A stretch of 60,222 nt of DNA from a virus (taxonomy: Duplodnaviria > Caudoviricetes): positions 1 to 60,222 of the IMG/VR virus record IMGVR_UViG_3300042898_005595, one strand, 5' to 3'. The position numbers and the translations under genes were made by a program. Shown one piece after another: positions 825 through 36,104 of this stretch; the first letter of the stretch is position 1; each line of letters starts with the position of its first letter. Below the pieces are notes generated by a model that was not told where the DNA came from, did not search any database, and worked only from the letters and a program-made list of their open reading frames with translations.

Positions 825-868
825 TTTGATTAACTTATTTTGTTAATCATATATATTAAAAATCTTTG

Positions 869-939
869 CTCCCCAGGTAGGTTACGATCCTACTTCCTAC
901 GTGTTAACAGCACGTTGCTCGCCACTGAGCTTCTGAGGA
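869..939 (-). tRNA. tRNA-Asn(GUU)
   Basis: Acceptor TCCTCAG/CTGGGGA+G; anticodon arm ACGTG-CTGTTAA-CACGT. Confidence 0.9.
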
Positions 940-952
940 ATATTTCTGTTTG

Positions 953-1025
953 TAGCTCCTGCGGGATTCGAACCCACATTCTCGCTTTAGAAGAGCGATG
1001 TCCTGTCCAGTTGGACGAAGGAGCT
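953..1025 (-). tRNA. tRNA-Arg(UCU)
   Basis: Acceptor AGCTCCT/AGGAGCT; anticodon arm TCGCT-CTTCTAA-AGCGA; GGTTCGAATCC T arm. Confidence 0.92.
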
Positions 1026-1030
1026 TTTTG

Positions 1031-1119
1031 TACCTCAGGTCGGACTCGAACCGACAGTGTTTTCCACGAGGGTGCTAGTTTCTAAAACTAGTGCGTTTCA
1101 ACCGTTTCGCCACTGAGGC
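1031..1119 (-). tRNA. tRNA-Leu(UAG)
   Basis: Anticodon arm CTAGT-TTTAGAA-ACTAG, long variable arm, canonical T arm. Confidence 0.92.
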
Positions 1120-1158
1120 ATCTTGTACCATTTTTTAAAAGGTGGTACTTCCTTTTTG

Positions 1159-1233
1159 TACTCCCCATCGGATTCGAACCGATACCTGTACAGGGTTTAA
1201 GTCTGTTGCCTCTTCCAATTGGGCTACGGGACC
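1159..1233 (-). tRNA. tRNA-Leu(UAA) with short variable arm and acceptor mismatches
   Basis: Anticodon loop CTTAAAC, T arm ATCGG-TTCGAAT-CCGAT; acceptor GGTCCCG/GGGGAGT has two G-G mismatches. Confidence 0.75.
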
Positions 1234-1237
1234 ATAT

Positions 1238-1275
1238 AAAACAAAAAACCCGAACTTCTTTCGAGGTTCGGGTTT
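1238..1275 (-). terminator. Attenuator terminator of the Leu/Arg/Asn/Ile tRNA operon
   Basis: AAACCCGAACCTC-GAAA-GAAGTTCGGGTTT then TTTGTTTT, directly before tRNA-Leu(UAA). Confidence 0.85.
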
Positions 1276-1302
1276 ATATCTTATTTGGAGTTATTTACTT
1301 CA

Positions 1303-1410
1303 TCATGAGATAAATCCAAATTTTGCACAACCCGAACCAGCGGTTCTAATACATAACGTATTCACCACCATCGTGAGATTCAAATTGATATTTAGATTCA
1401 TTGTTTTCAT
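1303..1410 (-). CDS. Leader peptide (35 aa, Asn/Leu-rich) of a tRNA operon attenuator
   Basis: MKTMNLNINLNLTMVVNTLCIRTAGSGCAKFGFIS*; contains GGTTCGGGTT, fully complementary to the terminator 5' arm. Confidence 0.75.
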   Translation of the reverse strand: MKTMNLNINLNLTMVVNTLCIRTAGSGCAKFGFIS

Positions 1411-1457
1411 TATTTCTTATATATTAAAAAGTTTATGTTCCTTTTGATTTTGTTTTA

Positions 1458-1489
1458 CAAATATATGGTGTATTTTTTACACCACCAAA
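1458..1489 (-). promoter_or_regulatory. Bacteroidota-type primary sigma promoter
   Basis: TTTG-N20-TATATTTG matches the -33/-7 consensus TTTG/TAnnTTTG; a second TATATTTG lies at 1524-1531. Confidence 0.75.
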
Positions 1490-1548
1490 TTTATTTTATT
1501 ATTTTTCTGTTTTTATTGTATTACAAATATACAATAAAGTTTTTAAAG

Positions 1549-2316
1549 TTATAGAGATATATTATTACTCTTTAAAACTTCGGCTAGAACTTCAATAGAT
1601 TCTTCTACTCTATCGTATTGAAATATTCCATTACTATTTGGCTTTGGCCAGTAGTTTATTTTCCACTCATATCTTGGATAAACATTGACTACTCTACTTT
1701 CAATATTTTTGTATTTTAAATAGTAACTAAAAATATGATCATCATGCATCGCAATCATATCGTGAAGCTTATATCCATCGATGAACATATTTACCCAATT
1801 ATATAAATCCTCATAATTTAGAATATTTGCTGGGTAAAGAACTCCACGATATCCACCTAACAAATCAACAATATGATAGTCACCATTTATAAATTCACCA
1901 TGGACAAATTTATCATCTTTAATACCCATTATTCCATATACAGAGTCACTACCACACTTATCATGAATATTTTTCAAACATTCTATAGCAGTTGGGAATA
2001 ATCCATTATCATCATCAAATATTAATATTTGATCATCAGATTGTAAGTTATGTTCCTTTAGTGGAGTTAATAGTTTAAGACAAGGTCCTATATCCTGATC
2101 ATAAAAAACTATCCTATTCTCGATAGGATAGTTTTTTAATTTTTCAGATATTTTTTCAATATCAGATTCATCTATAGACTTATTGAGTCTAGGATAAAAT
2201 CTCGATATCGAAACATATAAAAAGTCTGGAATTATTGTACTTAATAATAATTCATCAAGTGTTTTGATGAAATCATCAGTTCTATCGGGTAAAGTAATAA
2301 CAGAAGAGATTATCAT
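1549..2316 (-). CDS. GT-A fold glycosyltransferase-like protein
   Basis: TLPDR start, DIGPCLKL, IFDDD motif, GGYRGVLYP, HDD. Confidence 0.65.
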   Translation of the reverse strand: MIISSVITLPDRTDDFIKTLDELLLSTIIPDFLYVSISRFYPRLNKSIDESDIEKISEKLKNYPIENRIVFYDQDIGPCLKLLTPLKEHNLQSDDQILIFDDDNGLFPTAIECLKNIHDKCGSDSVYGIMGIKDDKFVHGEFINGDYHIVDLLGGYRGVLYPANILNYEDLYNWVNMFIDGYKLHDMIAMHDDHIFSYYLKYKNIESRVVNVYPRYEWKINYWPKPNSNGIFQYDRVEESIEVLAEVLKSNNISL

Positions 2317-2738
2317 TAAACAACTTCTAAAATTTCAATATCAAATACTAATGTCTCACCAGCCAATGGATGATTCGCATCAACTAAGATATTAGAGTCA
2401 TTTATTTCCTTAACTATAAAAGGTACTTCTTGTCCGTTCTTTAGAGTACCTTTCAATGTTTGTCCAATCACAACATTATCAGGAGCCATATTTTTAGGAA
2501 CACTAAGAATCATCTCCTGATTTATCTCACCATATCCTCTTTCTGGATCAATCTGAACAGTTTTTTTCTCACCTGGAATCATACCCAAAACAGCTTCCTC
2601 AAATCCCTGAATTAATTGACCTTCTCCAACAACAAACTCAAGAGCTGTTCTATCATCACGATATGAGGTGTCAAAAATACTATCATTAGTATATTTACCA
2701 GTATAATGTACCTTTACTTTACTTCCGTTTTTAATCAT
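2316..2738 (-). CDS. FKBP-type peptidyl-prolyl isomerase, SlyD-like
   Basis: VKVHYTG..FDTS..GEGQLIQGFEEA..YG..VDANHPLAGETLVFDIEIL. Confidence 0.92.
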   Translation of the reverse strand: MIKNGSKVKVHYTGKYTNDSIFDTSYRDDRTALEFVVGEGQLIQGFEEAVLGMIPGEKKTVQIDPERGYGEINQEMILSVPKNMAPDNVVIGQTLKGTLKNGQEVPFIVKEINDSNILVDANHPLAGETLVFDIEILEVV

Positions 2739-2790
2739 TTCTAATATTTATTTTTAATTTTATTAAAAATAATAGAATAAGTTTAAAATC

Positions 2791-3096
2791 TTAATGTTCC
2801 TGATCATCCCATTCCGTATCATCAGTATATAAATCATCTATATACAAGGATATTTCTTGATATATTTTTTCAACTTGACTATAATCAAACCATCTTGTTT
2901 CAGATTCTAATTCTTGTAAAAATCTAACAAAACTATCTGTACCTGGTTTAAACATTTCAATAAGTTCCTCCTTTGAATGCTCTGGATATTTTAAATCAAT
3001 CCACTCATGGAATATCTCAAAAAGATCTTCTTCTTGTTCAGATGGCAATCCTTGATAATCTTCTTCAAAATCTTCGTACATTTTTAAATAGTTCAT
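2791..3096 (-). CDS. Acidic hypothetical protein with CTS-like N-terminus
   Basis: ORF starting MNYLKMYEDF; TATATA motif upstream. Confidence 0.6.
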   Translation of the reverse strand: MNYLKMYEDFEEDYQGLPSEQEEDLFEIFHEWIDLKYPEHSKEELIEMFKPGTDSFVRFLQELESETRWFDYSQVEKIYQEISLYIDDLYTDDTEWDDQEH

Positions 3097-3137
3097 TACA
3101 AAAAATAATTTTAATTATATATTAAAAATAATTTTAA

Positions 3138-3401
3138 TTAATCAAGATCAAAGATCATTTTATAATATTTTCTAATGTAGTTCGGAAGTTTACCATGTTT
3201 CTCCTCACACCTTTTAAAAAGATCAGCTTGTACAATTGCATTATATTGATCTAAATTATTTGAAAAGACTTTAGTTCGTATATCGATATGTGCATCTGCA
3301 CCATCTTCACCCTTATAAGCGTCTATCAAACTTTTATAAGAACCTGATATCTTTGCAGGTAATACATTATTAGACTCGTTAAACTTTTTTAAATGCTTCA
3401 T
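3138..3401 (-). CDS. Hypothetical protein with CTS-like N-terminus
   Basis: MKHLKKFNES. Confidence 0.6.
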   Translation of the reverse strand: MKHLKKFNESNNVLPAKISGSYKSLIDAYKGEDGADAHIDIRTKVFSNNLDQYNAIVQADLFKRCEEKHGKLPNYIRKYYKMIFDLD

Positions 3402-3469
3402 ATTTTGTAAATGATTTAATTATATATTAAAAAGTCTAATTAAAAATTTCATATTTTAATATATAATAT

Positions 3470-3952
3470 ATGAAATACTTAAAACTATTTGAATCATTTG
3501 ACATAGATGAAGACGCTGAACATCTTAAAGATTTATCTTTGGATTTAAAAGATGAAGGCGAATGGAGTATAACTATTCACACAAATGTTGAAAAGTATAA
3601 TGACGATGATTATTCTACAAGAGTTATTCTTGAACCATTAGATGAATTTGATTGGGATGGTCCGGGAGTTGCCGAGGGTAATACTAAAGGTGGTAAGATA
3701 AATGATACACTAATTCAATATCTGGAAGACATTGTAGAGTATATGGAGGATTATGATTATAAAATAATAGTTGTAGGTGATGGTGATAACCCTATAACGA
3801 TCAACAGCTCACATCATGAAATAAACATAGAAAATGTTGAAGAGTTTAAAAAATGGACACAAAGAGAATTAAAATATCAAAGAAGTGACATAATGACATT
3901 TGGATTTAAAGGTGATTTAATCATTATAGAATTCTATGAAAAAGATATATAA
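3470..3952 (+). CDS. Acidic hypothetical protein with CTS-like N-terminus
   Basis: MKYLKLFESF; AATATATA directly upstream. Confidence 0.65.
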   Translation: MKYLKLFESFDIDEDAEHLKDLSLDLKDEGEWSITIHTNVEKYNDDDYSTRVILEPLDEFDWDGPGVAEGNTKGGKINDTLIQYLEDIVEYMEDYDYKIIVVGDGDNPITINSSHHEINIENVEEFKKWTQRELKYQRSDIMTFGFKGDLIIIEFYEKDI

Positions 3953-3955
3953 CAT

Positions 3956-4822
3956 ATGAAAAAATTCTCTGAGTCACAGATTTCAATTTTTGAATCTCCA
4001 GAACCTCTCGACTTTGTATCACTATTTGAAAAGATGAAAAATCTTAAGTCTTGGCTTTACACGTCAACTGGTCTTGGTATGATGTCTATAATTGATGATA
4101 TATTCAAAGAATATAATTATGAAACATCATTAAATCAAAATCAAATTGATAAGTTTAATAGAGGTGTTGAATTATTGAAAAAAACCTCAATGCCATTAGA
4201 CCACATAAATTTACGACTATCTCAAAAATTACCAGGTGGCATACAAAGTAAAAAATTAGTTTTAGATGAGAATGGCGAATGGGATTATGTCAATAAATTA
4301 AATACAAATTATTTAGATTTATCTGATCTTTTAGTTGAATTAATAAAAAGAGGATGTGATAACAACTATGAAAAGGGTAAATTAGTATATGATTCAATTA
4401 TGAATAATCCCAAACAAGGATTGTTAGAAATAAAACCATACTTAAAAAGATTAATAGTACTTTACTTTATTGAAAAGGGGAAAGGATTGGATGATTTTAA
4501 AAAATTTACGGTATATTCAAAGAAAATGTCTAAGATAGGAGAAGTAGCTGAAGATTCAGTAACAGCCTTTTTACAATCTAAAGGATTTTTAATCGCACAC
4601 TCTGGTGGAAATGGAGATTTTATAGATATGGTTTTCGGTGTTGATTTGATAATTTTTTGTCATACTAATAAAAATCCAGATCTTGTTGGATACAAAAGCG
4701 TCCAGATAAAAAATAGGATTGATGATTGGTCTAAATTAAGTTACTATAAAGTTGATATAGTAGCAGAAACAAACCCAGTAAGGTTCTATAACCTTAAAGA
4801 TAAATCTATTTTAGATCTTTAA
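3956..4822 (+). CDS. Hypothetical protein, possible C-terminal PD-(D/E)xK nuclease fold
   Basis: GEVAE..DMVFGVDLII..SVQIK pattern. Confidence 0.45.
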   Translation: MKKFSESQISIFESPEPLDFVSLFEKMKNLKSWLYTSTGLGMMSIIDDIFKEYNYETSLNQNQIDKFNRGVELLKKTSMPLDHINLRLSQKLPGGIQSKKLVLDENGEWDYVNKLNTNYLDLSDLLVELIKRGCDNNYEKGKLVYDSIMNNPKQGLLEIKPYLKRLIVLYFIEKGKGLDDFKKFTVYSKKMSKIGEVAEDSVTAFLQSKGFLIAHSGGNGDFIDMVFGVDLIIFCHTNKNPDLVGYKSVQIKNRIDDWSKLSYYKVDIVAETNPVRFYNLKDKSILDL

Positions 4823-5405
4823 TTTGGATCATCTTTCTAACAACCGTTTTCAATCCCGGATTCACCAATAGTGCCTCTGGTACAATATTGTGACGAATAC
4901 GATTTCTTGAATAATCAACACAAGAATTAGATTCATCTTCAACAAATGGTACATTTTTATTCTGACACCATTTATAAAATACTGATTTTTCATTAAGTAA
5001 GAATGGTCGAATCACATTTCCTCTAGAATAAGGAATAACCGATTGAAATCCTCTAAGACAAGAGAATAAGTAAGTCTCTACACAATCATCTAAATGATGG
5101 CAAGTAATAATAGGAAAATCAAATTGTGAGAAAAATTCATATCTCAAATCACTCCAAATCTTTTCTTTGTTAGATTTAGGACTTAAATCAGTTCTTCCAA
5201 CAAATAATTTTAAGTTATGAGTTCTACAATATTTTGTAACTAATTCTTCGGCTTTATCTCCATTTTCTGTATTATGATTGAAGTATAGAATATTAGGATA
5301 ATATCCACCATTCAATAGAAAGTTAGCAATCGCCATTGAATCAACTCCACCAGAACAAGCAAGTCCGAATTCTCCTTTTGGAATATTACCTAAAACTTTA
5401 ATCAT
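4806..5405 (-). CDS. tilS: tRNA(Ile)-lysidine synthetase, catalytic domain only
   Basis: SGGVDS PP-loop, FNH, LRY, HHLDDCVET, IRPFL, DESN..RNRIRH; likely ATG at 5405 just after TATATTTG. Confidence 0.88.
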   Translation of the reverse strand: MIKVLGNIPKGEFGLACSGGVDSMAIANFLLNGGYYPNILYFNHNTENGDKAEELVTKYCRTHNLKLFVGRTDLSPKSNKEKIWSDLRYEFFSQFDFPIITCHHLDDCVETYLFSCLRGFQSVIPYSRGNVIRPFLLNEKSVFYKWCQNKNVPFVEDESNSCVDYSRNRIRHNIVPEALLVNPGLKTVVRKMIQIKDLK

Positions 5406-5450
5406 ATACAAATATAATCAAATTATTGTAAATTTCAAGATAATTAATTG

Positions 5451-5525
5451 TGGAGCGTAAGGGAATCGAACCCTGTTTTTCAGAACAACTTGCAAAGTTG
5501 TTTGGTCACGCCTGTACAACGCCCC
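5451..5525 (-). tRNA. tRNA-Ala(UGC) with atypical D region
   Basis: Acceptor GGGGCGT/ACGCTCC+A with G3:U70; anticodon arm ACAAC-TTTGCAA-GTTGT; TTCGATT T loop. Confidence 0.7.
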
Positions 5526-5534
5526 TTTATTTTG

Positions 5535-5608
5535 TGGAGAATATCGGATTTGAACCGATTACCTTTTGTATGCCATACAAACTCTCTAGCCAACTGAGCT
5601 AATTCCCC
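5535..5608 (-). tRNA. tRNA-Ala(GGC)
   Basis: Acceptor GGGGAAT/ATTCTCC with G3:U70; anticodon arm TTTGT-ATGGCAT-ACAAA. Confidence 0.88.
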
Positions 5609-5646
5609 TGGAGCCGGACCCTGGGACTAACAGGGAGTCCTCCGGC
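5609..5646 (-). ncRNA. 38-nt tRNA-minihelix-like element ending in UCCA
   Basis: GCCGGA-GGACT-CCCTG-TTAGTCC-CAGGG-TCCGGC-TCCA, abutting G1 of tRNA-Ala(GGC). Confidence 0.5.
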
Positions 5647-5649
5647 ATT

Positions 5650-6300
5650 TTAAATATCAACTTTTTTAATAACTCTTCCTTTTATCCATCCAATACTTAT
5701 ATAATCATTTAAATCATTTTTATTAATTTTTTTATTTCCGAATTCAATATGATATATCCAACAAGTTCCATATTGAGAATTTTTCTCACCTTTTTGACTT
5801 TTAGAATTTTTTTCACCAATCTTCTTTTTCGATTCTTCTTTATGACTCTTTCCTGTCCAATCAGGTGCCTTTAAAATTCCCAATTCTCTAAGATTTCTAT
5901 TCTGTATAACCATTCTTTCTTTATTTCTTTTTCTGAATTCTGGATTATTCCAATTAATTTTATTCATTGAAATAGCAGCTTTTTTATTTTTTTCCTTTCT
6001 TAGTACAATGTTAGAATTTATTGATTCAAAACAATCACCACCTACAATTATATTATACACATCAATTCTTTTTATAAAACTCTCATTAACTATTTTTTTC
6101 TCCATTTCGTATGCCTCATTCTCACTATCTAATATAAATAATATATCCTTTACAAAATTTTCAACTCCATATTTAATTATGGCTCTTCTAATATATTTTC
6201 CACTTCCCATATAACCATCATTTATATCAGTCGTTGAGTGTTTACCTATGTAAATTTTACCATTTAAGATATTTGTAATTTTATAAATTATATGCAACAT
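5650..6300 (-). CDS. GIY-YIG homing endonuclease (Seg-like) within the tRNA cluster
   Basis: IIYKITNILNGKIYIGKH..YMGSG..YN; NUMOD3-like GKSHKEESKKKIG. Confidence 0.9.
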   Translation of the reverse strand: MLHIIYKITNILNGKIYIGKHSTTDINDGYMGSGKYIRRAIIKYGVENFVKDILFILDSENEAYEMEKKIVNESFIKRIDVYNIIVGGDCFESINSNIVLRKEKNKKAAISMNKINWNNPEFRKRNKERMVIQNRNLRELGILKAPDWTGKSHKEESKKKIGEKNSKSQKGEKNSQYGTCWIYHIEFGNKKINKNDLNDYISIGWIKGRVIKKVDI

Positions 6301-6346
6301 AACAAGAACTATTTATTTTATATATTAAATAGTTCGAGTCCTGTTA
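6299..6346 (-). promoter_or_regulatory. Hairpin occluding the endonuclease start, with TATATA in the loop
   Basis: TAACAG..GAACTATTT-AATATATAAAAT-AAATAGTTC-TTGTTATG. Confidence 0.6.
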
Positions 6347-6354
6347 CTCACAAG

Positions 6355-6425
6355 AGCAAAATGTGGGAATCAAACCCCGTCCCCACATTGGAAGTGTGGT
6401 GCTTTATCATTAAGCTACATTTTGC
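6355..6425 (-). tRNA. tRNA-Gly(UCC), apparent 8-bp acceptor and 4-nt T stem
   Basis: GCAAAATG/CATTTTGC+T; anticodon arm CCACA-CTTCCAA-TGTGG. Confidence 0.75.
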
Positions 6426-6430
6426 TTATG

Positions 6431-6504
6431 TTGGTGAGGTGGGTAACGATCCCACTATCTTGTGTGTATAAGACACATGCTTCTACCGTCTAAGCTACTC
6501 ACCA
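6431..6504 (-). tRNA. tRNA-Ile(UAU)
   Basis: Acceptor TGGTGAG/CTCACCA; anticodon arm TGTGT-CTTATAC-ACACA; T loop ATCGTTA. Confidence 0.85.
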
Positions 6505-6541
6505 AAATAAAAAAACCCAGTCAATTTTCATCGACTGGGTT
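6505..6541 (-). terminator. Attenuator terminator of the Ile/Gly/Ala tRNA operon
   Basis: AACCCAGTCGAT-GAAA-ATTGACTGGGTT then TTTTTATTT. Confidence 0.88.
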
Positions 6542-6568
6542 AAGTTTTTTAGTTTTTAATATTATAAT

Positions 6569-6655
6569 TTAAAAACTTTTTGACATAACACAGTCATTGA
6601 CACCCGCTCCCGCGCCGCCTCCGATTATTGCTATTGTTATGTTTAAAGTTTTCAT
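6569..6655 (-). CDS. Leader peptide (28 aa, Ile/Gly/Ala-rich)
   Basis: MKTLNITIAIIGGGAGAGVNDCVMSKSF*; ATAx3, ATC, GGA GGC GGC GCG GGA GCG GGT. Confidence 0.85.
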   Translation of the reverse strand: MKTLNITIAIIGGGAGAGVNDCVMSKSF

Positions 6656-6716
6656 TTTATTCTATTTTTAATTATATTATTATATATTAGAAAAGTTTTC
6701 TTTCCTAAATTTTTTG

Positions 6717-6799
6717 TTGGAAGAGAGGGATTCGAACCCCCGTACTCCGAAGAGATTTGATTTACAGTCAAACGCATTTAGCCACTCTGCCACCTTCCA
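6717..6799 (-). tRNA. tRNA-Tyr(GUA)
   Basis: Anticodon arm TTTGA-CTGTAAA-TCAAA, long variable arm, GGTTCGAATCC. Confidence 0.92.
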
Positions 6800-6808
6800 A
6801 TATTTTTG

Positions 6809-6879
6809 TAGCCCGTAGGGGTAACGATCCCCTCTTTTTTGGTTGAAAACCAAGAGTCCTTCCTCTAGACGAACGGGCC
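6809..6879 (-). tRNA. tRNA-Glu(UUC)
   Basis: GGCCCGTTCGTCTAG..GGAC; anticodon loop TTTTCAA; T loop ATCGTTA. Confidence 0.88.
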
Positions 6880-6885
6880 AATTTG

Positions 6886-6959
6886 CACTCTTGACGGGAA
6901 TCGAACCCACATCTACATCGGTCTGAGAAACCGGAGTCCTACCGTTAGACGACAAGAGC
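6886..6959 (-). tRNA. tRNA-Glu(CUC)
   Basis: GCTCTTGTCGTCTAACGGTAGGAC; anticodon loop TTCTCAG; GGGTTCGATTCCC. Confidence 0.88.
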
Positions 6960-6965
6960 ATTTAG

Positions 6966-7036
6966 TGGGATAAGAGAGAATCGAACTCTCGTAGCTATGT
7001 TTTACAGACATTCTTGGTTGCCCTGACCTTTATCCC
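6966..7036 (-). tRNA. Atypical tRNA-Tyr(GUA) with short variable arm and odd D arm
   Basis: Acceptor GGGATAA/TTATCCC+A; ATGT-CTGTAAA-ACAT; GAGAG-TTCGATT-CTCTC. Confidence 0.7.
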
Positions 7037-7042
7037 AATTTG

Positions 7043-7116
7043 TACTCTTGACGGGAATCGAACCCGCATCTACATCTGTTTGAAAAACAGGAGTCCTACC
7101 GTTAGACGACAAGAGC
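7043..7116 (-). tRNA. tRNA-Glu(UUC)
   Basis: Near-duplicate of 6886-6959 with anticodon loop TTTTCAA. Confidence 0.88.
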
Positions 7117-7131
7117 ATTTACAATATATTT

Positions 7132-7168
7132 AAAACAAAAAACCCAGTCAATTTGATTTGACTGGGTT
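7132..7168 (-). terminator. Attenuator terminator of the Glu/Tyr tRNA operon
   Basis: AACCCAGTCAA-ATCAAA-TTGACTGGGTT then TTTTGTTTT. Confidence 0.88.
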
Positions 7169-7195
7169 ACTTGTGTTTTTAGTTAATATTTTATA

Positions 7196-7276
7196 TCAAC
7201 TTTTCACAGACATAGTATCTCCAGTCGCTGAGTGTTCTTCATACGCTTCATAATAATATGTTGTTACAGTTGTCAT
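7196..7276 (-). CDS. Leader peptide (26 aa, Tyr/Glu-rich)
   Basis: MTTVTTYYYEAYEEHSATGDTMSVKS*; TAT TAT TAT GAA GCG TAT GAA GAA. Confidence 0.85.
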   Translation of the reverse strand: MTTVTTYYYEAYEEHSATGDTMSVKS

Positions 7277-7311
7277 GATTTCTTTATTTTAAATTGTTCT
7301 ATTTTGTTTTA

Positions 7312-7342
7312 CAAATATACGGAGATTTTTTAAACCACCAAA
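7312..7342 (-). promoter_or_regulatory. Bacteroidota-type promoter driving the Tyr/Glu leader
   Basis: TTTG-N19-TATATTTG. Confidence 0.78.
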
Positions 7343-7361
7343 TATTTGTAAAACTTTTTTG

Positions 7362-7433
7362 TAGCGGGGGGTGGAATCGAACCACCGACCTTTAGGTTAT
7401 GAGCCTAACGAGCTGCCTCTGCTCTACCCCGCA
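7362..7433 (-). tRNA. tRNA-Met(CAU), initiator-like
   Basis: TGCGGGGTAGAGCAG..AGCTCG, anticodon arm TTAGG-CTCATAA-CCTAA, 1:72 mismatch; own TATATTTG at 7451-7458. Confidence 0.88.
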
Positions 7434-7538
7434 ATATTTAGTATATATTACAAATATACTTCTTTGTTTTAATTTTTTTAATATATAATTTTATAATTAA
7501 CTTTTTTTTATTATATTTGTAAAACAAACAACAGAACT

Positions 7539-7886
7539 ATGACAAATTTCCTATCAATAGATGAACGTAATCAAATTGAGAAAGCAAAGGCTGAAATTAA
7601 GTCAGAACTATCTCGATTAAGAAACAAAATTAATAATTTTGTAGGTATTGAAATATTTACTTTTATTCTAACACTTTCATATCTCAATAATCAATCTTTT
7701 CTATTTGATACCAATCCAATTGTTGCATGGTCAATCCTTACAGGATTAGTCCTATTTCAAGTTATTCTAGTAATGGCCACACGAGTGGCTCTATACAATT
7801 GGAATACTAACCAACGTGTATTAGAGATTTATGACATGTCAGACGAAGAGTTTGACAGAAAATTCAAAGAATTCTGTGAAAAATAA
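7539..7886 (+). CDS. Two-TM membrane protein
   Basis: Two hydrophobic segments; TATATTTG at 7512-7519. Confidence 0.7.
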   Translation: MTNFLSIDERNQIEKAKAEIKSELSRLRNKINNFVGIEIFTFILTLSYLNNQSFLFDTNPIVAWSILTGLVLFQVILVMATRVALYNWNTNQRVLEIYDMSDEEFDRKFKEFCEK

Positions 7887-15060: not shown

Positions 15061-15620
15061 TTACTGCAATTTTTTAAAAATTCTTTTTCTTTTTCAGTTA
15101 AATTATCATAACCAACAATATTAATCTTATCTAAGACTTCATCTAAAGTAAGATTATCCTTTTTCACTTTCTTTTTGGGTTGGTTATTAGATGAAAGTCT
15201 CATATACGTCTGTCTATCAATAATATTATTTTGAAGATAAACCACATCATTAATCATTAAACTAAATCTAGACCATACTTTGGCATTTATTTTATCCAAT
15301 AAATCTTGATTCACAATCTCACTAGTATAAATACATTCAGCTCCCTTAAAAATAGAAATATCCTTCTTATCTATGAAAAGCATAACCTGTATTTCGCCTT
15401 CGAGAGGAATAATCGTGTCAATCTGTATTACATGATTGACACGATTATTAAAATTAGTTTCATCAGAATCTAAATTTTCTAAAACCTGAGAGAATACTTT
15501 AGTTTGAATCCTCTTTAATTTAATTTTATTAAAAAGTGAAATTAAATAAACTGAAAGAGTCGTCAGTAATATACCAACGAAAATACCAAATATCCAAAAA
15601 TAAAAGAATATTATCTGCAT
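15057..15620 (-). CDS. Membrane-anchored protein with rhomboid-tail-like (DUF6576-like) C-terminus
   Basis: N-terminal TM; LDEVLDKINIVGYDNLTEKEKEFL. Confidence 0.6.
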   Translation of the reverse strand: MQIIFFYFWIFGIFVGILLTTLSVYLISLFNKIKLKRIQTKVFSQVLENLDSDETNFNNRVNHVIQIDTIIPLEGEIQVMLFIDKKDISIFKGAECIYTSEIVNQDLLDKINAKVWSRFSLMINDVVYLQNNIIDRQTYMRLSSNNQPKKKVKKDNLTLDEVLDKINIVGYDNLTEKEKEFLKNCSK

Positions 15621-16804
15621 AAGTTATAAATTTCTTTTCTAATATTAATCAAAATTTGTTCCACAAGATTCATATCAACTTTATCCGGTAAAGTTGAGTT
15701 CTTATATAGAATATCAATTTCCTTGATTTCACTCTCAACATGATCAATCAAAGTTTGAAGATCTACCTTACCTTGACGAATATCGATCAACTCCTGAGCA
15801 TTTGGTCGTCTAACAACAATACCCTTACCCTCAGCAATTTCACGAGCCATATCCATCAATCTTCGACAGTGCATCATATTCTTACCATCGATCTTTTGGC
15901 CATGAGATTCAACATCAACCCATCTTTGTTCATTACGTTGATCTAACCAAGTTTGATAAGATTTATAATCATTACAATGTTGAGTATAACCATCTTTATT
16001 GTAAGTGATAATACAAATAGGAGTTTCACCTTTTGGAATAGAAGATAATCTTAATTGATTTGATTCGGCTGAGGTAGCACCTTCTCCAGTTTTAACCAAA
16101 CCTTTATAACCAAACCCCATAGATAGTTCTGATTCTTTTCTTAGATATTTTGCAGACTCTCTTACATTTTCAGGAACTGATTCACTAAAACACATGTGAG
16201 CAATTTCGTCAAAGTAAACAGCATAAATATCTCTAGCATTTGGAACATTGACAATCCCAATAAATTTTTCATCATATTGAAAATCTTCATTCCAAACTTT
16301 CCAAGGAATAGATTTTCCACCTTCAATAACGTAACAAAAGTCTAATACATCTTTACGAGTCACTTTATCCTTCTCCCAGTTTTGTTTTTTATTCTGGCCT
16401 TTTGCTTTACTAATTTGCTCTTTAGCGTAACCACCAAAAGAATTAGCACAAATTTTAGTCAATAGATTATCTTTGTTTTGGAGAATCTTATCAAACAAAG
16501 GATGTTTATAAACAACACAATCTTCTGGAGTATTAAGAAGTTCTAAAACAGTCGGATTATTTTTAGCAAGAAGTTCTAGGAATCTACGAAGTTCATAGAT
16601 TACAATATCATTTTTATCATCGTTGATTTGATCAACGTATGACATACCAAGAATAGAATCTAAGTTCTGTACAAAAACTCCAGAATAATCAGTATCGGAA
16701 GTTGGAATATTAGTTCCATAAGCATGAGAACCACGAATCACAAGGTAAAGTGGAATACTTCCTGGTGATTTAGATTCAATTAGCTGAATAAGTTCATTTT
16801 TCAT
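15611..16804 (-). CDS. Pol-beta-superfamily nucleotidyltransferase (RlaP/YcgL-like)
   Basis: GSHAYGTNIPTSDTDYSG, NNPTVLELL, DGKNMMHCRRL. Confidence 0.8.
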   Translation of the reverse strand: MKNELIQLIESKSPGSIPLYLVIRGSHAYGTNIPTSDTDYSGVFVQNLDSILGMSYVDQINDDKNDIVIYELRRFLELLAKNNPTVLELLNTPEDCVVYKHPLFDKILQNKDNLLTKICANSFGGYAKEQISKAKGQNKKQNWEKDKVTRKDVLDFCYVIEGGKSIPWKVWNEDFQYDEKFIGIVNVPNARDIYAVYFDEIAHMCFSESVPENVRESAKYLRKESELSMGFGYKGLVKTGEGATSAESNQLRLSSIPKGETPICIITYNKDGYTQHCNDYKSYQTWLDQRNEQRWVDVESHGQKIDGKNMMHCRRLMDMAREIAEGKGIVVRRPNAQELIDIRQGKVDLQTLIDHVESEIKEIDILYKNSTLPDKVDMNLVEQILINIRKEIYNLCR

Positions 16805-34144: not shown

Positions 34145-35593
34145 TTAAATTGATATTTCATCAATCATTTCATATAACTTATTCTTATCTGTCTCAAGCC
34201 ACTGCATAATATCAAAAACTTTATCAGAAAATCCAGCCAAAGCAAATACATTTTGTTCTGGAAGTTGCATTGTTCCAAGACCAGATAAATCCCAAGAATA
34301 AACATAAGGATTACAATTGAACTTCTTTTTGTAAAGATTAAATTCAGATGCTGGTGTTGTCTTACCTATCCAACCTTGCATATCTGATAAGATAATTACA
34401 CGATCATATTTCTTATTAGCCTTTAAGAAAATATCTTTAAAGTTTGTTCCACCACCAGAGAAACGGAATCCATTTCTAATAGTAATAATTGAATCCATCG
34501 GATTATATGCCTTGTAATTAGCACTTGTAGCAAATGTCATAACATCACAGTTATTAGCCTTAGCCAACATCGATCCAAATAAAGAAGCTATCTCAGATGG
34601 TCTTCCACTCATAGATCCTGATACATCAAGAACTACTAAAGTATCACCATCAAACTTAGGAACGTTAATTGCAGATATATCTAATGCTTGATGTAATGCA
34701 GTCATTACCATTCTGACATCGGATGATGAACCTAACTTAGAAATCTCTTCATAAGCAGTTGAAAATCTAAATGGAAGAATACGACTTGATTTAATCAACT
34801 TCTCATCAACTAACATATCACACGCAAGTCCAACAAATTGTGGTGCTTGATTAATGATATTTCTCAAGTTTCTAAGAAGTGCAAAATATCCGATCTTTTT
34901 TGTTGTAAGAAGCTCACCCCATGCATCTGATTTTAACTGTGATAATTCCTCACTATTAGATGCATCTTGACCAGCTTTAGATAATTTAGACTCCCAAGTA
35001 TCAGTTGATTTTAAATCACCTAAAACAAGTTTAGAAAGTGCTTCCTTATTTGAAGGAGTTGGAACAGGATGTACTAAATTAACAATGTCAATAAGCTTAA
35101 CTTCTTTATTTTCACTCTTATATTTAGCAAGTTGATAACTATCAAAACGATTAAAAGCTGAAGCAAATCCCTTTTTCAAAGAGTTTGGAAACTTTGGCTT
35201 GATCTTATCTGTTTTATTCTCAAGATAGTAGGACATAATTTCAGTCATATCATCAACACGAACAACTACTTTATCGTAAAAATCTTTTGACCATTCTTGT
35301 CCTGAAACTCTTGATGTTAATTCTCCAGCGAGTGCGTGTGTGATACTTCTCATACCAAACTTATCACGAGCAAATATTGCAGCCTTAGCAGCAAATTTAG
35401 GATCAACTTTATCTAAAATAGTTTTAAGTCTATCTAGTGTGACATTAGATGAACGATAAAATTGATCATCTACGAATGAGTTTAATAAAATAGAAATCAA
35501 TTCTAATTCATGTGATTGAGTGTAAGCCTGACCACCGGCTAAATTAGTGGTTAAAGTCTTTGGTTCTTTTAAAGTTAGGTTAAATTTTGACAT
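34145..35593 (-). CDS. Ro60/Rsr ortholog (TROVE + vWA domains)
   Basis: TNLAGGQAY, FDSYQLAKY, TWESKLS, ALLRNLRN, LPFRF, vWA DVSGSM..GGGT..ILSDMQ. Confidence 0.92.
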   Translation of the reverse strand: MSKFNLTLKEPKTLTTNLAGGQAYTQSHELELISILLNSFVDDQFYRSSNVTLDRLKTILDKVDPKFAAKAAIFARDKFGMRSITHALAGELTSRVSGQEWSKDFYDKVVVRVDDMTEIMSYYLENKTDKIKPKFPNSLKKGFASAFNRFDSYQLAKYKSENKEVKLIDIVNLVHPVPTPSNKEALSKLVLGDLKSTDTWESKLSKAGQDASNSEELSQLKSDAWGELLTTKKIGYFALLRNLRNIINQAPQFVGLACDMLVDEKLIKSSRILPFRFSTAYEEISKLGSSSDVRMVMTALHQALDISAINVPKFDGDTLVVLDVSGSMSGRPSEIASLFGSMLAKANNCDVMTFATSANYKAYNPMDSIITIRNGFRFSGGGTNFKDIFLKANKKYDRVIILSDMQGWIGKTTPASEFNLYKKKFNCNPYVYSWDLSGLGTMQLPEQNVFALAGFSDKVFDIMQWLETDKNKLYEMIDEISI

Positions 35594-35613
35594 AATTAAG
35601 TTTTTATTTTAAT

Positions 35614-35654
35614 AAAAAAGACCAGAAATAACTTTGTAGTTAAATCTGGCCTTT
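35614..35654 (-). terminator. Terminator between the ncRNAs and the Ro60 gene
   Basis: GGCCAGA-TTTAACT-ACAA-AGTTATT-TCTGGTC followed by TTTTTT. Confidence 0.7.
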
Positions 35655-35662
35655 TATATTAA

Positions 35663-35913
35663 TGTAACAAACAAGTAAATCTAGACTGAGGTGTCGTCCG
35701 GACCTCATCTCGAGGGCAGGGACCGATATTCTTTAGGATTTATATCTTATCCTACTCTTTTATTTACAAGAAGTGGTAAATTCTTGTGATCATTAAGTGA
35801 TCAAATCTATCCTTTTTTATTATTGTTTAACCAATAATCTGATTGCTTGGATTAGCTTTCAGTCTTTCGTATAGTTATCGAAGTAACTCAATCTATCGCT
35901 ATGTTTGTTTACA
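35663..35913 (-). ncRNA. Y-RNA-like ncRNA 2 (about 250 nt) with a multi-hairpin insert
   Basis: Ends pair (AACAAACA/TGTTTGTT; TAGATTGAG/CTCAGTCTA); GAGTTACTTCG shared with RNA 1; upstream of Ro60. Confidence 0.7.
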
Positions 35914-35927
35914 CTTATATTAATAGA

Positions 35928-35990
35928 CCAGAGATAATTTATTAAGAGTATTTTTTTCATTGCCGAAGTAACTCTCAAAATCACTACTGG
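35928..35990 (-). ncRNA. Y-RNA-like ncRNA 1 (about 63 nt)
   Basis: CCAG-TAGTGAT..GAGAGT-TACTTCG..ACTCTT..ATTATCT-CTGG bulged terminal stem. Confidence 0.65.
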
Positions 35991-36104
35991 ATTATTTCTA
36001 ATTGATTGTTTTTATTTTATATCCAAAAATTAAAAAGTTTAAATAATTTAAGATTAATGTTATATATGATGTTAGAAAATTAAAAAAATTCAAAGGTGGA
36101 TTTT

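Follow-up and report, generated by a model that had tools for sequence, protein, structure and literature searches.

A conserved CCA-ended minihelix gene in the tRNA arrays of giant phages, a candidate mimic of the tRNA acceptor end

The 60,222-base viral contig IMGVR_UViG_3300042898_005595 of the IMG/VR database (the window, that is, the whole stretch of DNA analysed) is estimated to be 23% complete and therefore comes from a giant phage. It carries, on the minus strand at 5609-5646, a 38-nt gene for a CCA-ended hairpin, referred to below as the minihelix or the element, which we found to recur in tRNA arrays of other phages with its acceptor-like end and its fold retained. The minihelix stands above chance because it is conserved in other phages, not because of its folding energy. 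The reading that we favour, at a rough probability of 0.45, is that the element encodes an RNA of 37-38 nt which mimics the acceptor/T-arm half of a tRNA, is released by RNase P and acts in trans, most likely as a competitor or decoy. Acceptor/T-arm minihelices have been used for decades as laboratory substrates and discussed as a hypothetical tRNA ancestor; here one is met as a natural, conserved gene with an encoded CCA. The natural minihelix gene is what is new, tRNA mimics and tRNA-derived small RNAs being of a known kind, and a literature search, mostly at abstract level, found no account of phage tRNA arrays in which a minihelix with a CCA end occurs as a natural gene.

Sequence and Fold of the Minihelix

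The element and its parts are as follows (RNA position i corresponds to window position 5647-i).

5609..5646, minus strand: minihelix gene, 38 nt (RNA 5' to 3' reads 5646 to 5609)
5646-5641 (GCCGGA) and 5618-5613 (UCCGGC), minus strand: 5' and 3' strands of the acceptor-like 6-bp stem
5640-5636, minus strand: 5-nt bulge on the 5' side (GGACU)
5635-5631 (CCCUG) and 5623-5619 (CAGGG), minus strand: inner T-arm-like 5-bp stem
5630-5624, minus strand: 7-nt loop (UUAGUCC)
5612, minus strand: U73-like base, followed by CCA at 5611-5609

An earlier note, made from the sequence alone, had proposed a CCA-ended hairpin of 38 nt with these stems and this loop. The hairpin is real and reads in this way only on the minus strand; RNAfold gives the same fold at -17.3 kcal/mol, comprising 91% of the ensemble, with the two 3' strands contiguous. 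This main form has 11 bp (6+5) and a diverged form, described below, has 10-11, the 3' strand being unbroken in both. The inner arm fits the sizes of a T arm, with its 5-bp stem and 7-nt loop. In the precursor fold, the minihelix hairpin and the cloverleaf of the tRNA-Ala gene that follows both form. The folding energy is unremarkable (z -1.63 against dinucleotide shuffles, 16 of 200 shuffles folding equally well).

The alternative pairing GGACU/AGUCC between bulge and loop, also suggested in the note, exists at -15.5 kcal/mol, which makes it 1.8 kcal/mol costlier than the main fold. In the diverged copy of contig L150 its register is held, with four of five pairs present and two changed on both sides; we do not take it as established, since in L150 it is weak (-7.1 vs -16.4 kcal/mol).

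Neither of two ordinary identities fits the element. A canonical tRNA was rejected on account of the length of only 38 nt and the single internal hairpin, without D arm and anticodon arm; ARAGORN made no tRNA call over 5609-5646, and Rfam gave no match there (E up to 10 on 4800-7600; gathering level for the whole window). An intrinsic terminator was rejected as well, given that the hairpin is followed by UCCA and G1 of the next tRNA, with no U run.

Conservation in Related Phages

Altogether, the main form is represented by 18 full copies in 14 sequence contexts and by one copy cut at a contig end (L129), and the diverged form by two copies, in L150 (38 nt) and L283 (37 nt). When only the outer stems and UCCA were fixed, a scan of IMG/VR returned 31 loci, of which 30 are chance matches in unrelated DNA and L008 alone has the identical 38-mer. 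A second IMG/VR scan, in which only the inner hairpin was fixed and UCCA was not forced, again recovered L008. This 134-kb contig is from a relative, with a PP-loop protein 86% identical to that of the window, and has no endonuclease gene at the element, which lies 14 nt after a tRNA-Gly(GCC) gene and directly adjoins a tRNA-Ala-like gene that is very different. Aligned with each other, window and L008 show a 44-nt island of perfect identity between strongly diverged flanks, in which most columns differ.

A metagenome scan added 17 contigs, 14 with the identical full 38-mer; L118 carries U15C and A25G, by which a U-A pair becomes C-G, and L130 has an A1 variant. Over the 14 contexts, pairwise identity averages 0.99 within the element; the 85-nt flanks average 0.60 and 0.58, and the tRNA-Ala-like genes that abut it (8 contexts) 0.68. 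The near-invariance of the element is unbiased only at the 16 positions left free by the metagenome search pattern, and in the window, L008, L150 and L283. At these 16 positions, the 17 metagenome copies show three changes, two of which are compensatory.

The diverged form was reached by a search independent of the element, in which the 5' part of the window tRNA-Ala was compared with IMG/VR and the region upstream was inspected in the 30 loci returned. The element is missing from 29 of them; the remaining one, L150 (a 476-kb contig, 97% complete), has GCCGGAUGAUCCACCGUUGAAUCGCGGUGCCGGCUCCA, placed 4 nt after tRNA-Gly(GCC) and abutting tRNA-Ala(GGC). A pattern drawn from the interior of the L150 copy then found L283, a 37-nt version with the same ends; a tRNA-Gly(GCC) precedes it by 3 nt, and 1 nt downstream begins an odd tRNA that has a CAU anticodon and is not called by ARAGORN. 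Two of the four matches of one pattern search, L161 and L162, were discarded as fortuitous, lying away from any tRNA context.

The first five acceptor pairs (G1-C, C2-G, C3-G, G4-C and G5-C) and UCCA are constant in all five sequence variants, except for A1 in L130, and UCCA was not forced by the search in L008, L150 or L283. In the model alignment, the two forms differ by nine substitutions and two indels yet keep the length, the acceptor pairs, the inner 5-bp stem and UCCA, with bulge and loop differing between them. Two of the five inner pairs have changed on both sides, C13-G27 to A-U and, in two lineages, U15-A25 to C-G. In a four-sequence alignment, 97.7% of the cells are paired, as against at most 51% in slid-partner controls. 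The support from covariation is real but thin.

The earlier note had reckoned with a deleted tRNA remnant in case there was neither a discrete RNA nor structural conservation. Conservation is present, and because the inner stem is kept by compensation and the acceptor helix and UCCA are retained, the element is not a dead tRNA remnant. A decayed remnant, or a neutral passenger of no function that recombination carries from array to array along with adjacent cassettes, would suit several features: the arrays are mosaic (L114, L116 and L126 share the same upstream tRNA-Gly and have different downstream genes), the element is dispensable in relatives and its T-loop is degenerate. Such an origin is nonetheless very improbable in our estimate, as the flanking tRNAs carry many point differences while the element carries none or compensated ones, and as the acceptor sequence outlasts the divergence between the two forms. 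We infer a functional mimic rather than a remnant and, one step further, a possible decoy role.

As to distribution, the element is present as a single copy (one match each in the genomes G003 and G004) and is absent from the whole record of a 95%-complete relative (G001) and from the whole records of G002 and of the 642-kb phage LR756502.1. Two covariance searches, with model R1 (83 sources, 626 kb) and model R2 (73 sources, 694 kb), returned no members beyond the known ones, and blastn of both forms against 50,697 GenBank phage records gave no match at E up to 1. The central 22-mer (2 N) had 0 matches in the reference-genome collection, on which ground a host-derived or attachment-site origin was dismissed. 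Found in some related giant phages and missing from others, the element has the distribution of an accessory gene; it is embedded like a tRNA and is presumably processed like one as well.

Placement in tRNA Arrays

In the window, the local genes are all on the minus strand, and the minihelix is part of a block with the order tRNA-Ile(UAU), tRNA-Gly(UCC), endonuclease, minihelix, tRNA-Ala(GGC), tRNA-Ala(UGC), after which comes a PP-loop gene.

6430..6504, minus strand: tRNA-Ile(UAU), the block's first tRNA (ARAGORN, Rfam)
6354..6425, minus strand: tRNA-Gly(UCC), the nearest upstream tRNA (ARAGORN, Rfam)
5650..6300, minus strand: open reading frame (ORF) of a SegB-like GIY-YIG homing endonuclease, 216 aa (Pfam GIY-YIG, 24.4 bits, cut-off 22.6)
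5534-5608 (ARAGORN) or 5535-5608 (Rfam, 57.7 bits), minus strand: tRNA-Ala(GGC)
5450..5525, minus strand: tRNA-Ala(UGC) with an atypical D region, the block's last tRNA (ARAGORN; in Rfam a weak tRNA-Sec match of 18.5 bits)
4806-5411, minus strand: PP-loop ATPase (PF01171, 107 bits), immediately following the tRNAs of the block

Every copy of the element lies on the tRNA strand. A tRNA-Gly called by ARAGORN ends 3-14 nt upstream in 12 of the 14 main-form contexts and also upstream of both diverged copies; the two contexts without such a call are the window, where the endonuclease gene intervenes, and L126, which has an uncalled tRNA-like 3' end. Directly upstream, a tRNA-type 3' end is found in 13 of the 14 contexts. 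The bases before G1 are AU in 13 contexts and CU in L130, so that position -1 is U in 14/14; among ordinary array tRNAs an AT leader is found in 71/144 and T at -1 in 97/144. These 144 are the distinct ARAGORN tRNAs with at least 6 of 7 acceptor pairs at 15 element-carrying loci (window 868-7433, minus strand, and 14 related ones). Only 7 of the 144 have an encoded N73-CCA, which bears out the remark in the earlier note that the encoded CCA sets the element apart from its neighbours, and 86 have N73-CAA. Since nearly all array tRNAs are without an encoded CCA, the phages depend on 3' trimming and CCA addition.

Downstream, the situation is less uniform. G1 of tRNA-Ala(GGC) in the window (5608) abuts the CCA of the minihelix with zero spacer, and the earlier note had taken this to mean that RNase P cleavage of the tRNA-Ala would release the 3' end of the minihelix exactly. 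That geometry holds in 8 of the 14 main-form contexts, where the base next to CCA is G1, either of tRNA-Ala or of a sequence that resembles tRNA-Ala and begins with GGGG (five called by ARAGORN; L008, L116 and L126 judged by eye), and in one of the two diverged copies. It does not hold in five further main-form contexts, in which a tRNA-Gly or tRNA-Arg begins 1-5 nt after CCA, nor in L120, where 72 nt follow.

A hairpin wedged between two tRNAs at tRNA-like spacing, among tRNAs that mostly lack CCA, might also serve in cis: it would be a CCA-bearing entry point for RNase P, at which cleavage liberates both the 3' trailer of the upstream tRNA-Gly and the following tRNA's 5' end, the hairpin itself being a by-product. 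Hairpins of this kind are indeed cleaved by RNase P, which makes use of the RCCA end (PMC11143913; this and the other sources cited by number are drawn on in extract), and the extract on plant mitochondrial t-elements offers a precedent of tRNA-like processing signals (PMC1920247). We consider this explanation unlikely. Most tRNA junctions in the same arrays lack the element, as do 29 of the 30 similar tRNA-Ala loci and the 95%-complete relative G001. Moreover, a generic hairpin needs no constant acceptor of Gly/Thr type, and the association with tRNA-Gly would be left unexplained.

Identity of the Acceptor End

According to the extract of PMC9976931, U73, G1-C72 and C2-G71 are bacterial Gly identity elements, together with C35 and C36. 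The minihelix has the first three and, having no anticodon arm, lacks C35 and C36. The claim in the earlier note that its end carries Gly determinants therefore stands, although it is not specific: in a scan of reference genomes with this acceptor helix and a generic T-loop, the whole helix GCCGGA(G)...(C)UCCGGC-U73 is that of tRNA-Thr in 111 of the 120 matches listed, the rest being Cys (2) and matches with no clear call (7), and Gly 0. In the phage arrays, tRNA-Thr genes start with GCC and end with GGC-U, and tRNA-Gly genes have G or A at position 3. As Thr dominates, the helix itself is not Gly-specific, and the Gly label is favoured only by the position among tRNA-Gly genes. From its sequence, the acceptor end is best called Gly/Thr type.

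With such an end, the RNA could be a chargeable mini-tRNA, aminoacylated by glycyl- or threonyl-tRNA synthetase for non-ribosomal use or for titration of the synthetase or EF-Tu. The three Gly determinants, the identity of the acceptor helix with cellular tRNA-Thr and the location among tRNA-Gly genes speak for it, as does the charging of minihelices of several systems (PMC9976931, in extract). We nevertheless regard it as a distinctly remote prospect: C35/C36 of Gly and the anticodon bases of Thr, which are identity elements too, are missing, the isotype is ambiguous, and a scan of 30 window ORFs brought up no transferase that depends on aminoacyl-tRNA.

The same end resembles the target of a defence toxin. 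For FaRel2, an antiphage toxSAS that modifies CCA, the extract of bioRxiv 10.1101/2024.07.05.602228 gives as determinants G1-C72, C2-G71, G4-C69 and Pu5-Py68, with pair 3:70 irrelevant, and reports that the toxin selects Gly and Thr isotypes and that a tRNA-Gly minihelix is an efficient substrate. Judged by sequence only, the phage minihelix has all four determinant pairs and CCA.

Proposed Mode of Action

In the favoured reading of a decoy acting in trans, the minihelix would be transcribed together with the Ile/Gly/Ala block and its 5' end would be cut at G1 by RNase P, as the biology of this enzyme suggests; model hairpin substrates made up of an acceptor stem with a T-stem plus a T-loop are cleaved at the canonical site (PMC11143913, in extract). 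The CCA-3'OH would arise from the RNase P cut of the abutting tRNA, or from trimming of a 1-5-nt trailer, that is, directly in 8/14 contexts and after short-trailer trimming in five, with L120 and its 72 nt standing apart. The free minihelix would then act as a mimic of a Gly/Thr-type acceptor end. Because the acceptor sequence and NCCA are constant while the rest is kept between the forms only as structure, the partner would be one that reads the acceptor end. The target that we prefer would be a protein that recognizes acceptor stem and CCA, e.g., an antiphage toxin of the host, such as toxSAS, that modifies CCA or the aminoacyl group; alternatively, the partner could be a synthetase, EF-Tu or RNase P itself.

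Several points weigh against this reading. The helix has 10-11 bp, not 12, and the main-form loop UUAGUCC is non-canonical when set against what we take to be the T-loop consensus, to which the diverged-form UUGAAUCG is nearer. When the T-loop is replaced, RNase P reportedly cleaves less efficiently and at a shifted position (PMC11143913, in extract). Bulge and loop are constant within the main form, which a decoy does not need, and A1 of L130 stands opposite C. The metagenome search pattern fixed 22 of the 38 positions (bulge, loop, 3' strand and UCCA), and five distinct sequences lie behind the covariation, whose observed score is also attained by 20 of 500 shuffles of the columns. Some tRNA-Gly genes of the arrays also begin with GCGGG, so that a scheme in which phage tRNAs escape and the minihelix attracts is not clean; furthermore, the bacterium in which FaRel2 occurs is an unrelated one. 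Finally, RNA contigs (two RNA runs among 21 sequencing runs, share 0.09) place only on 5974-6239, inside the endonuclease ORF; placed contigs of this kind can't show RNA ends and neither favour nor oppose expression of the minihelix.

If made and stable, the RNA would be a minimal natural tRNA mimic, with RNase P, a synthetase, EF-Tu or a CCA-directed toxin as possible partner. If the decoy role is true, an "acceptor-end decoy" would extend the list of means by which phage tRNA genes are known to counteract defences that target tRNA.

The Homing Endonuclease and Other Neighbours

The endonuclease ORF, which belongs to the surroundings of the minihelix RNA and not to the RNA itself, separates tRNA-Gly(UCC) from the minihelix, stops 3 nt short of the latter and is about 70% identical to T4 segB at the nucleotide level over 268 nt (blastn). 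Its presence raises the question of whether conservation is imposed on the DNA, the element being a homing-endonuclease target or a recombination hot spot. In the window and L283, SegB-like genes adjoin the element or its tRNA-Gly, and in the element-less L001 one adjoins tRNA-Gly; SegB homologues associate with tRNA genes (PMC13096335, in extract), and synteny breaks on both sides of the element. We give this explanation hardly any credence. The SegB motif RAWTSGAAC, as extracted from the same paper, has 12 matches in the window and 0 in 5609-5646, in 13 of the 14 main-form contexts no endonuclease ORF but a tRNA-type 3' end stands directly upstream, and changes that restore pairing are unexpected for a protein-DNA site.

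SegB-like genes recur beside tRNA-Gly genes, at 5650-6300 (minus strand) in the window, at about 3030-3625 (minus strand) in L001 and upstream of the tRNA-Gly at 2310-2385 (minus strand) in L283. In the window, the endonuclease occupies the place where other phages carry a second tRNA-Gly. The PP-loop ATPase downstream of the block is conserved in 250 IMG/VR stretches, beside a tRNA-Ile(UAU) gene and ATA-rich leaders; PF01171 is the family of lysidine and thiolation tRNA enzymes.

In L001 (LR756502.1) we noticed a 46-nt minus-strand hairpin, GUCGGG...CUCGGC-UCCA, between tRNA-Ile at 3930-4003 and tRNA-Gly at 3764-3835. Its architecture is similar, with an outer stem, 5'-side bulges, an inner hairpin and a UCCA tail, and so is its fold; it does not adjoin a tRNA 5' end. 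The element models miss it, with only a partial match at E 7.7, and its own pattern gets 0 IMG/VR matches. It may be a distant analogue.

Comparison With Known Systems

Bacterial Y RNAs such as YrlA, which are bound by Ro60, are small non-coding RNAs with a tRNA-like module that mimics part of a tRNA. They differ from the minihelix in being about 100 nt or longer and in having a Ro-binding stem. The window encodes two proteins that deserve mention here.

34145-35593, minus strand: Ro60/TROVE protein (61 bits)
15611-16804, minus strand: RlaP-type RNA-repair nucleotidyltransferase

A link between Ro60 and the minihelix was rejected, since Ro60 is also encoded in G001, which lacks the minihelix; it is encoded in G003 and G004 as well. 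A non-coding stretch of about 500 nt upstream of the Ro60 gene (35600-36100, minus strand) may hold a Y RNA; at gathering level, Rfam detects none upstream of this gene in the window.

Species 1 and 2 of the T4 tRNA cluster are stable non-tRNA RNAs, encoded and processed together with the phage tRNAs, whose function is not known. They are much longer than the minihelix, and in a blastn search of the window region against GenBank phages T4 was matched in segB only.

A close likeness is that to synthetic minihelices and AT1-type RNase P substrates, which also consist of an acceptor stem on a T-like stem-loop with a single-stranded NCCA and have no D or anticodon arm; in the extracts, bacterial RNase P cleaves AT1-type substrates at the canonical site (PMC11143913) and some minihelices are charged (PMC9976931). 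Those constructs are laboratory products of 12 bp with a true T-loop, in contrast to the phage element, which is natural and conserved and has a helix of 10-11 bp, a bulge of 5-6 nt on the 5' side and a loop that is non-canonical. The tRNA-Gly1-mimicking minihelix used with FaRel2 shares with the element the four determinant pairs and CCA, and a C3-G70 variant of it was tested and found harmless (bioRxiv 10.1101/2024.07.05.602228, in extract); again, the former is synthetic and the latter natural, and the resemblance is one of nucleotide order. Plant mitochondrial t-elements are likewise intergenic tRNA-like stem-loops, acting as processing signals for RNase P and RNase Z (PMC1920247, in extract), but they mark organelle mRNA ends and are not CCA-encoded units in tRNA arrays. 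The 3' tRNA-like structures of plant RNA viruses are another case of viral acceptor-end mimicry, some of them aminoacylatable (PMC9976931, in extract). In contrast to the minihelix, a separate gene of a DNA phage, they lie within an RNA genome, are often pseudoknotted and measure about 80 nt or more.

Leader Peptides and Candidate Attenuators

In the window, a small ORF and a strong hairpin with a T run stand ahead of every tRNA block, and the ORF spells out in its codons which tRNAs come next.

7276-7196, minus strand: leader ORF, with a terminator-like hairpin and T run at about 7162-7135
6569..6655 (read 6655-6569), minus strand: 28-codon leader ORF MKTLNITIAIIGGGAGAGVNDCVMSKSF, rich in Ile (ATA three times), Gly and Ala codons, candidate leader of the minihelix block
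6509..6541 (read 6541-6509), minus strand: strong hairpin and T run directly before tRNA-Ile, a candidate attenuator terminator
1410-1303, minus strand: leader ORF, with a terminator-like hairpin and T run at about 1275-1243

The leader MTTVTTYYYEAYEE... precedes the Glu, Glu, Glu, Tyr block, MKTLNITIAIIGGGAGAG... the block of Ile, Gly, minihelix, Ala and Ala, and MKTMNLNINLNL...CIR... that of Leu, Leu, Arg and Asn; in L041, a leader with ...GCDWQQE... precedes Gly, Trp, Cys, Gln, Glu and Asp. A scripted scan of 26 loci yielded 16 distinct leader/tRNA-block units, which apart from the window occur in L001, L008, L037, L041, L042, L114, L115, L121, L123, L125 and L130. The mean match of leader residues to the isotypes of the block is 0.373, a value reached by none of 10,000 shuffles of the blocks among units, and for four unrelated leader types the true pairing of leader and block is the best of 24 permutations. 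In 10 of the 16 units, the 5' arm of the terminator has its complement in an ORF stretch just behind the regulatory codons, at -11 to -14.4 kcal/mol, duplex energies reached by at most 0.035 of 200 ORF shuffles; this stretch covaries with the terminator arm between phages. For the Ile/Gly/Ala leader type, the antiterminator pairing was not significant. The equilibrium fold with the ORF masked keeps the terminator, therefore any switch would have to be kinetic.

The arrangement looks like transcription attenuation that senses shortage of the very tRNAs supplied by the block, and our literature search found no description of such attenuators of phage tRNA blocks. The Ile/Gly/Ala block would be switched on by stalling at Ile, Gly and Ala codons, and the minihelix would be co-induced with the replacement tRNAs as part of a stress-induced unit. 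Taken further, the minihelix would be the decoy arm of an inducible anti-defence module, in which the attenuators sense the loss of usable Ile-, Gly- and Ala-tRNA, caused e.g. by a host toxin that blocks tRNA CCA ends, and the block supplies both tRNAs and a toxin-soaking mimic; this extension is speculative and rather unlikely to hold as a whole. The idea that Thr codons in the Ile/Gly/Ala leader track the presence of the element was abandoned, as no correlation is visible by eye: L123 and L008 have the element and no Thr codon in the leader core. The attenuator observation may matter as much as the minihelix, in that phages may sense failing host tRNAs and answer with exactly those tRNAs.

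Unusual tRNA Genes

Odd tRNAs were met at 6966-7036 and 5450-5525 in the window (both minus strand), at 6176-6250 in L008 (plus strand) and downstream of the element in L126; one odd tRNA was found by Rfam (32.8 bits) and missed by ARAGORN. tRNA-Ala genes with unusual D regions (GGGGCAGCAUGUACCAAGG-type) escape tRNA finders, and several tRNAs are 85-88 nt long, with insertions.

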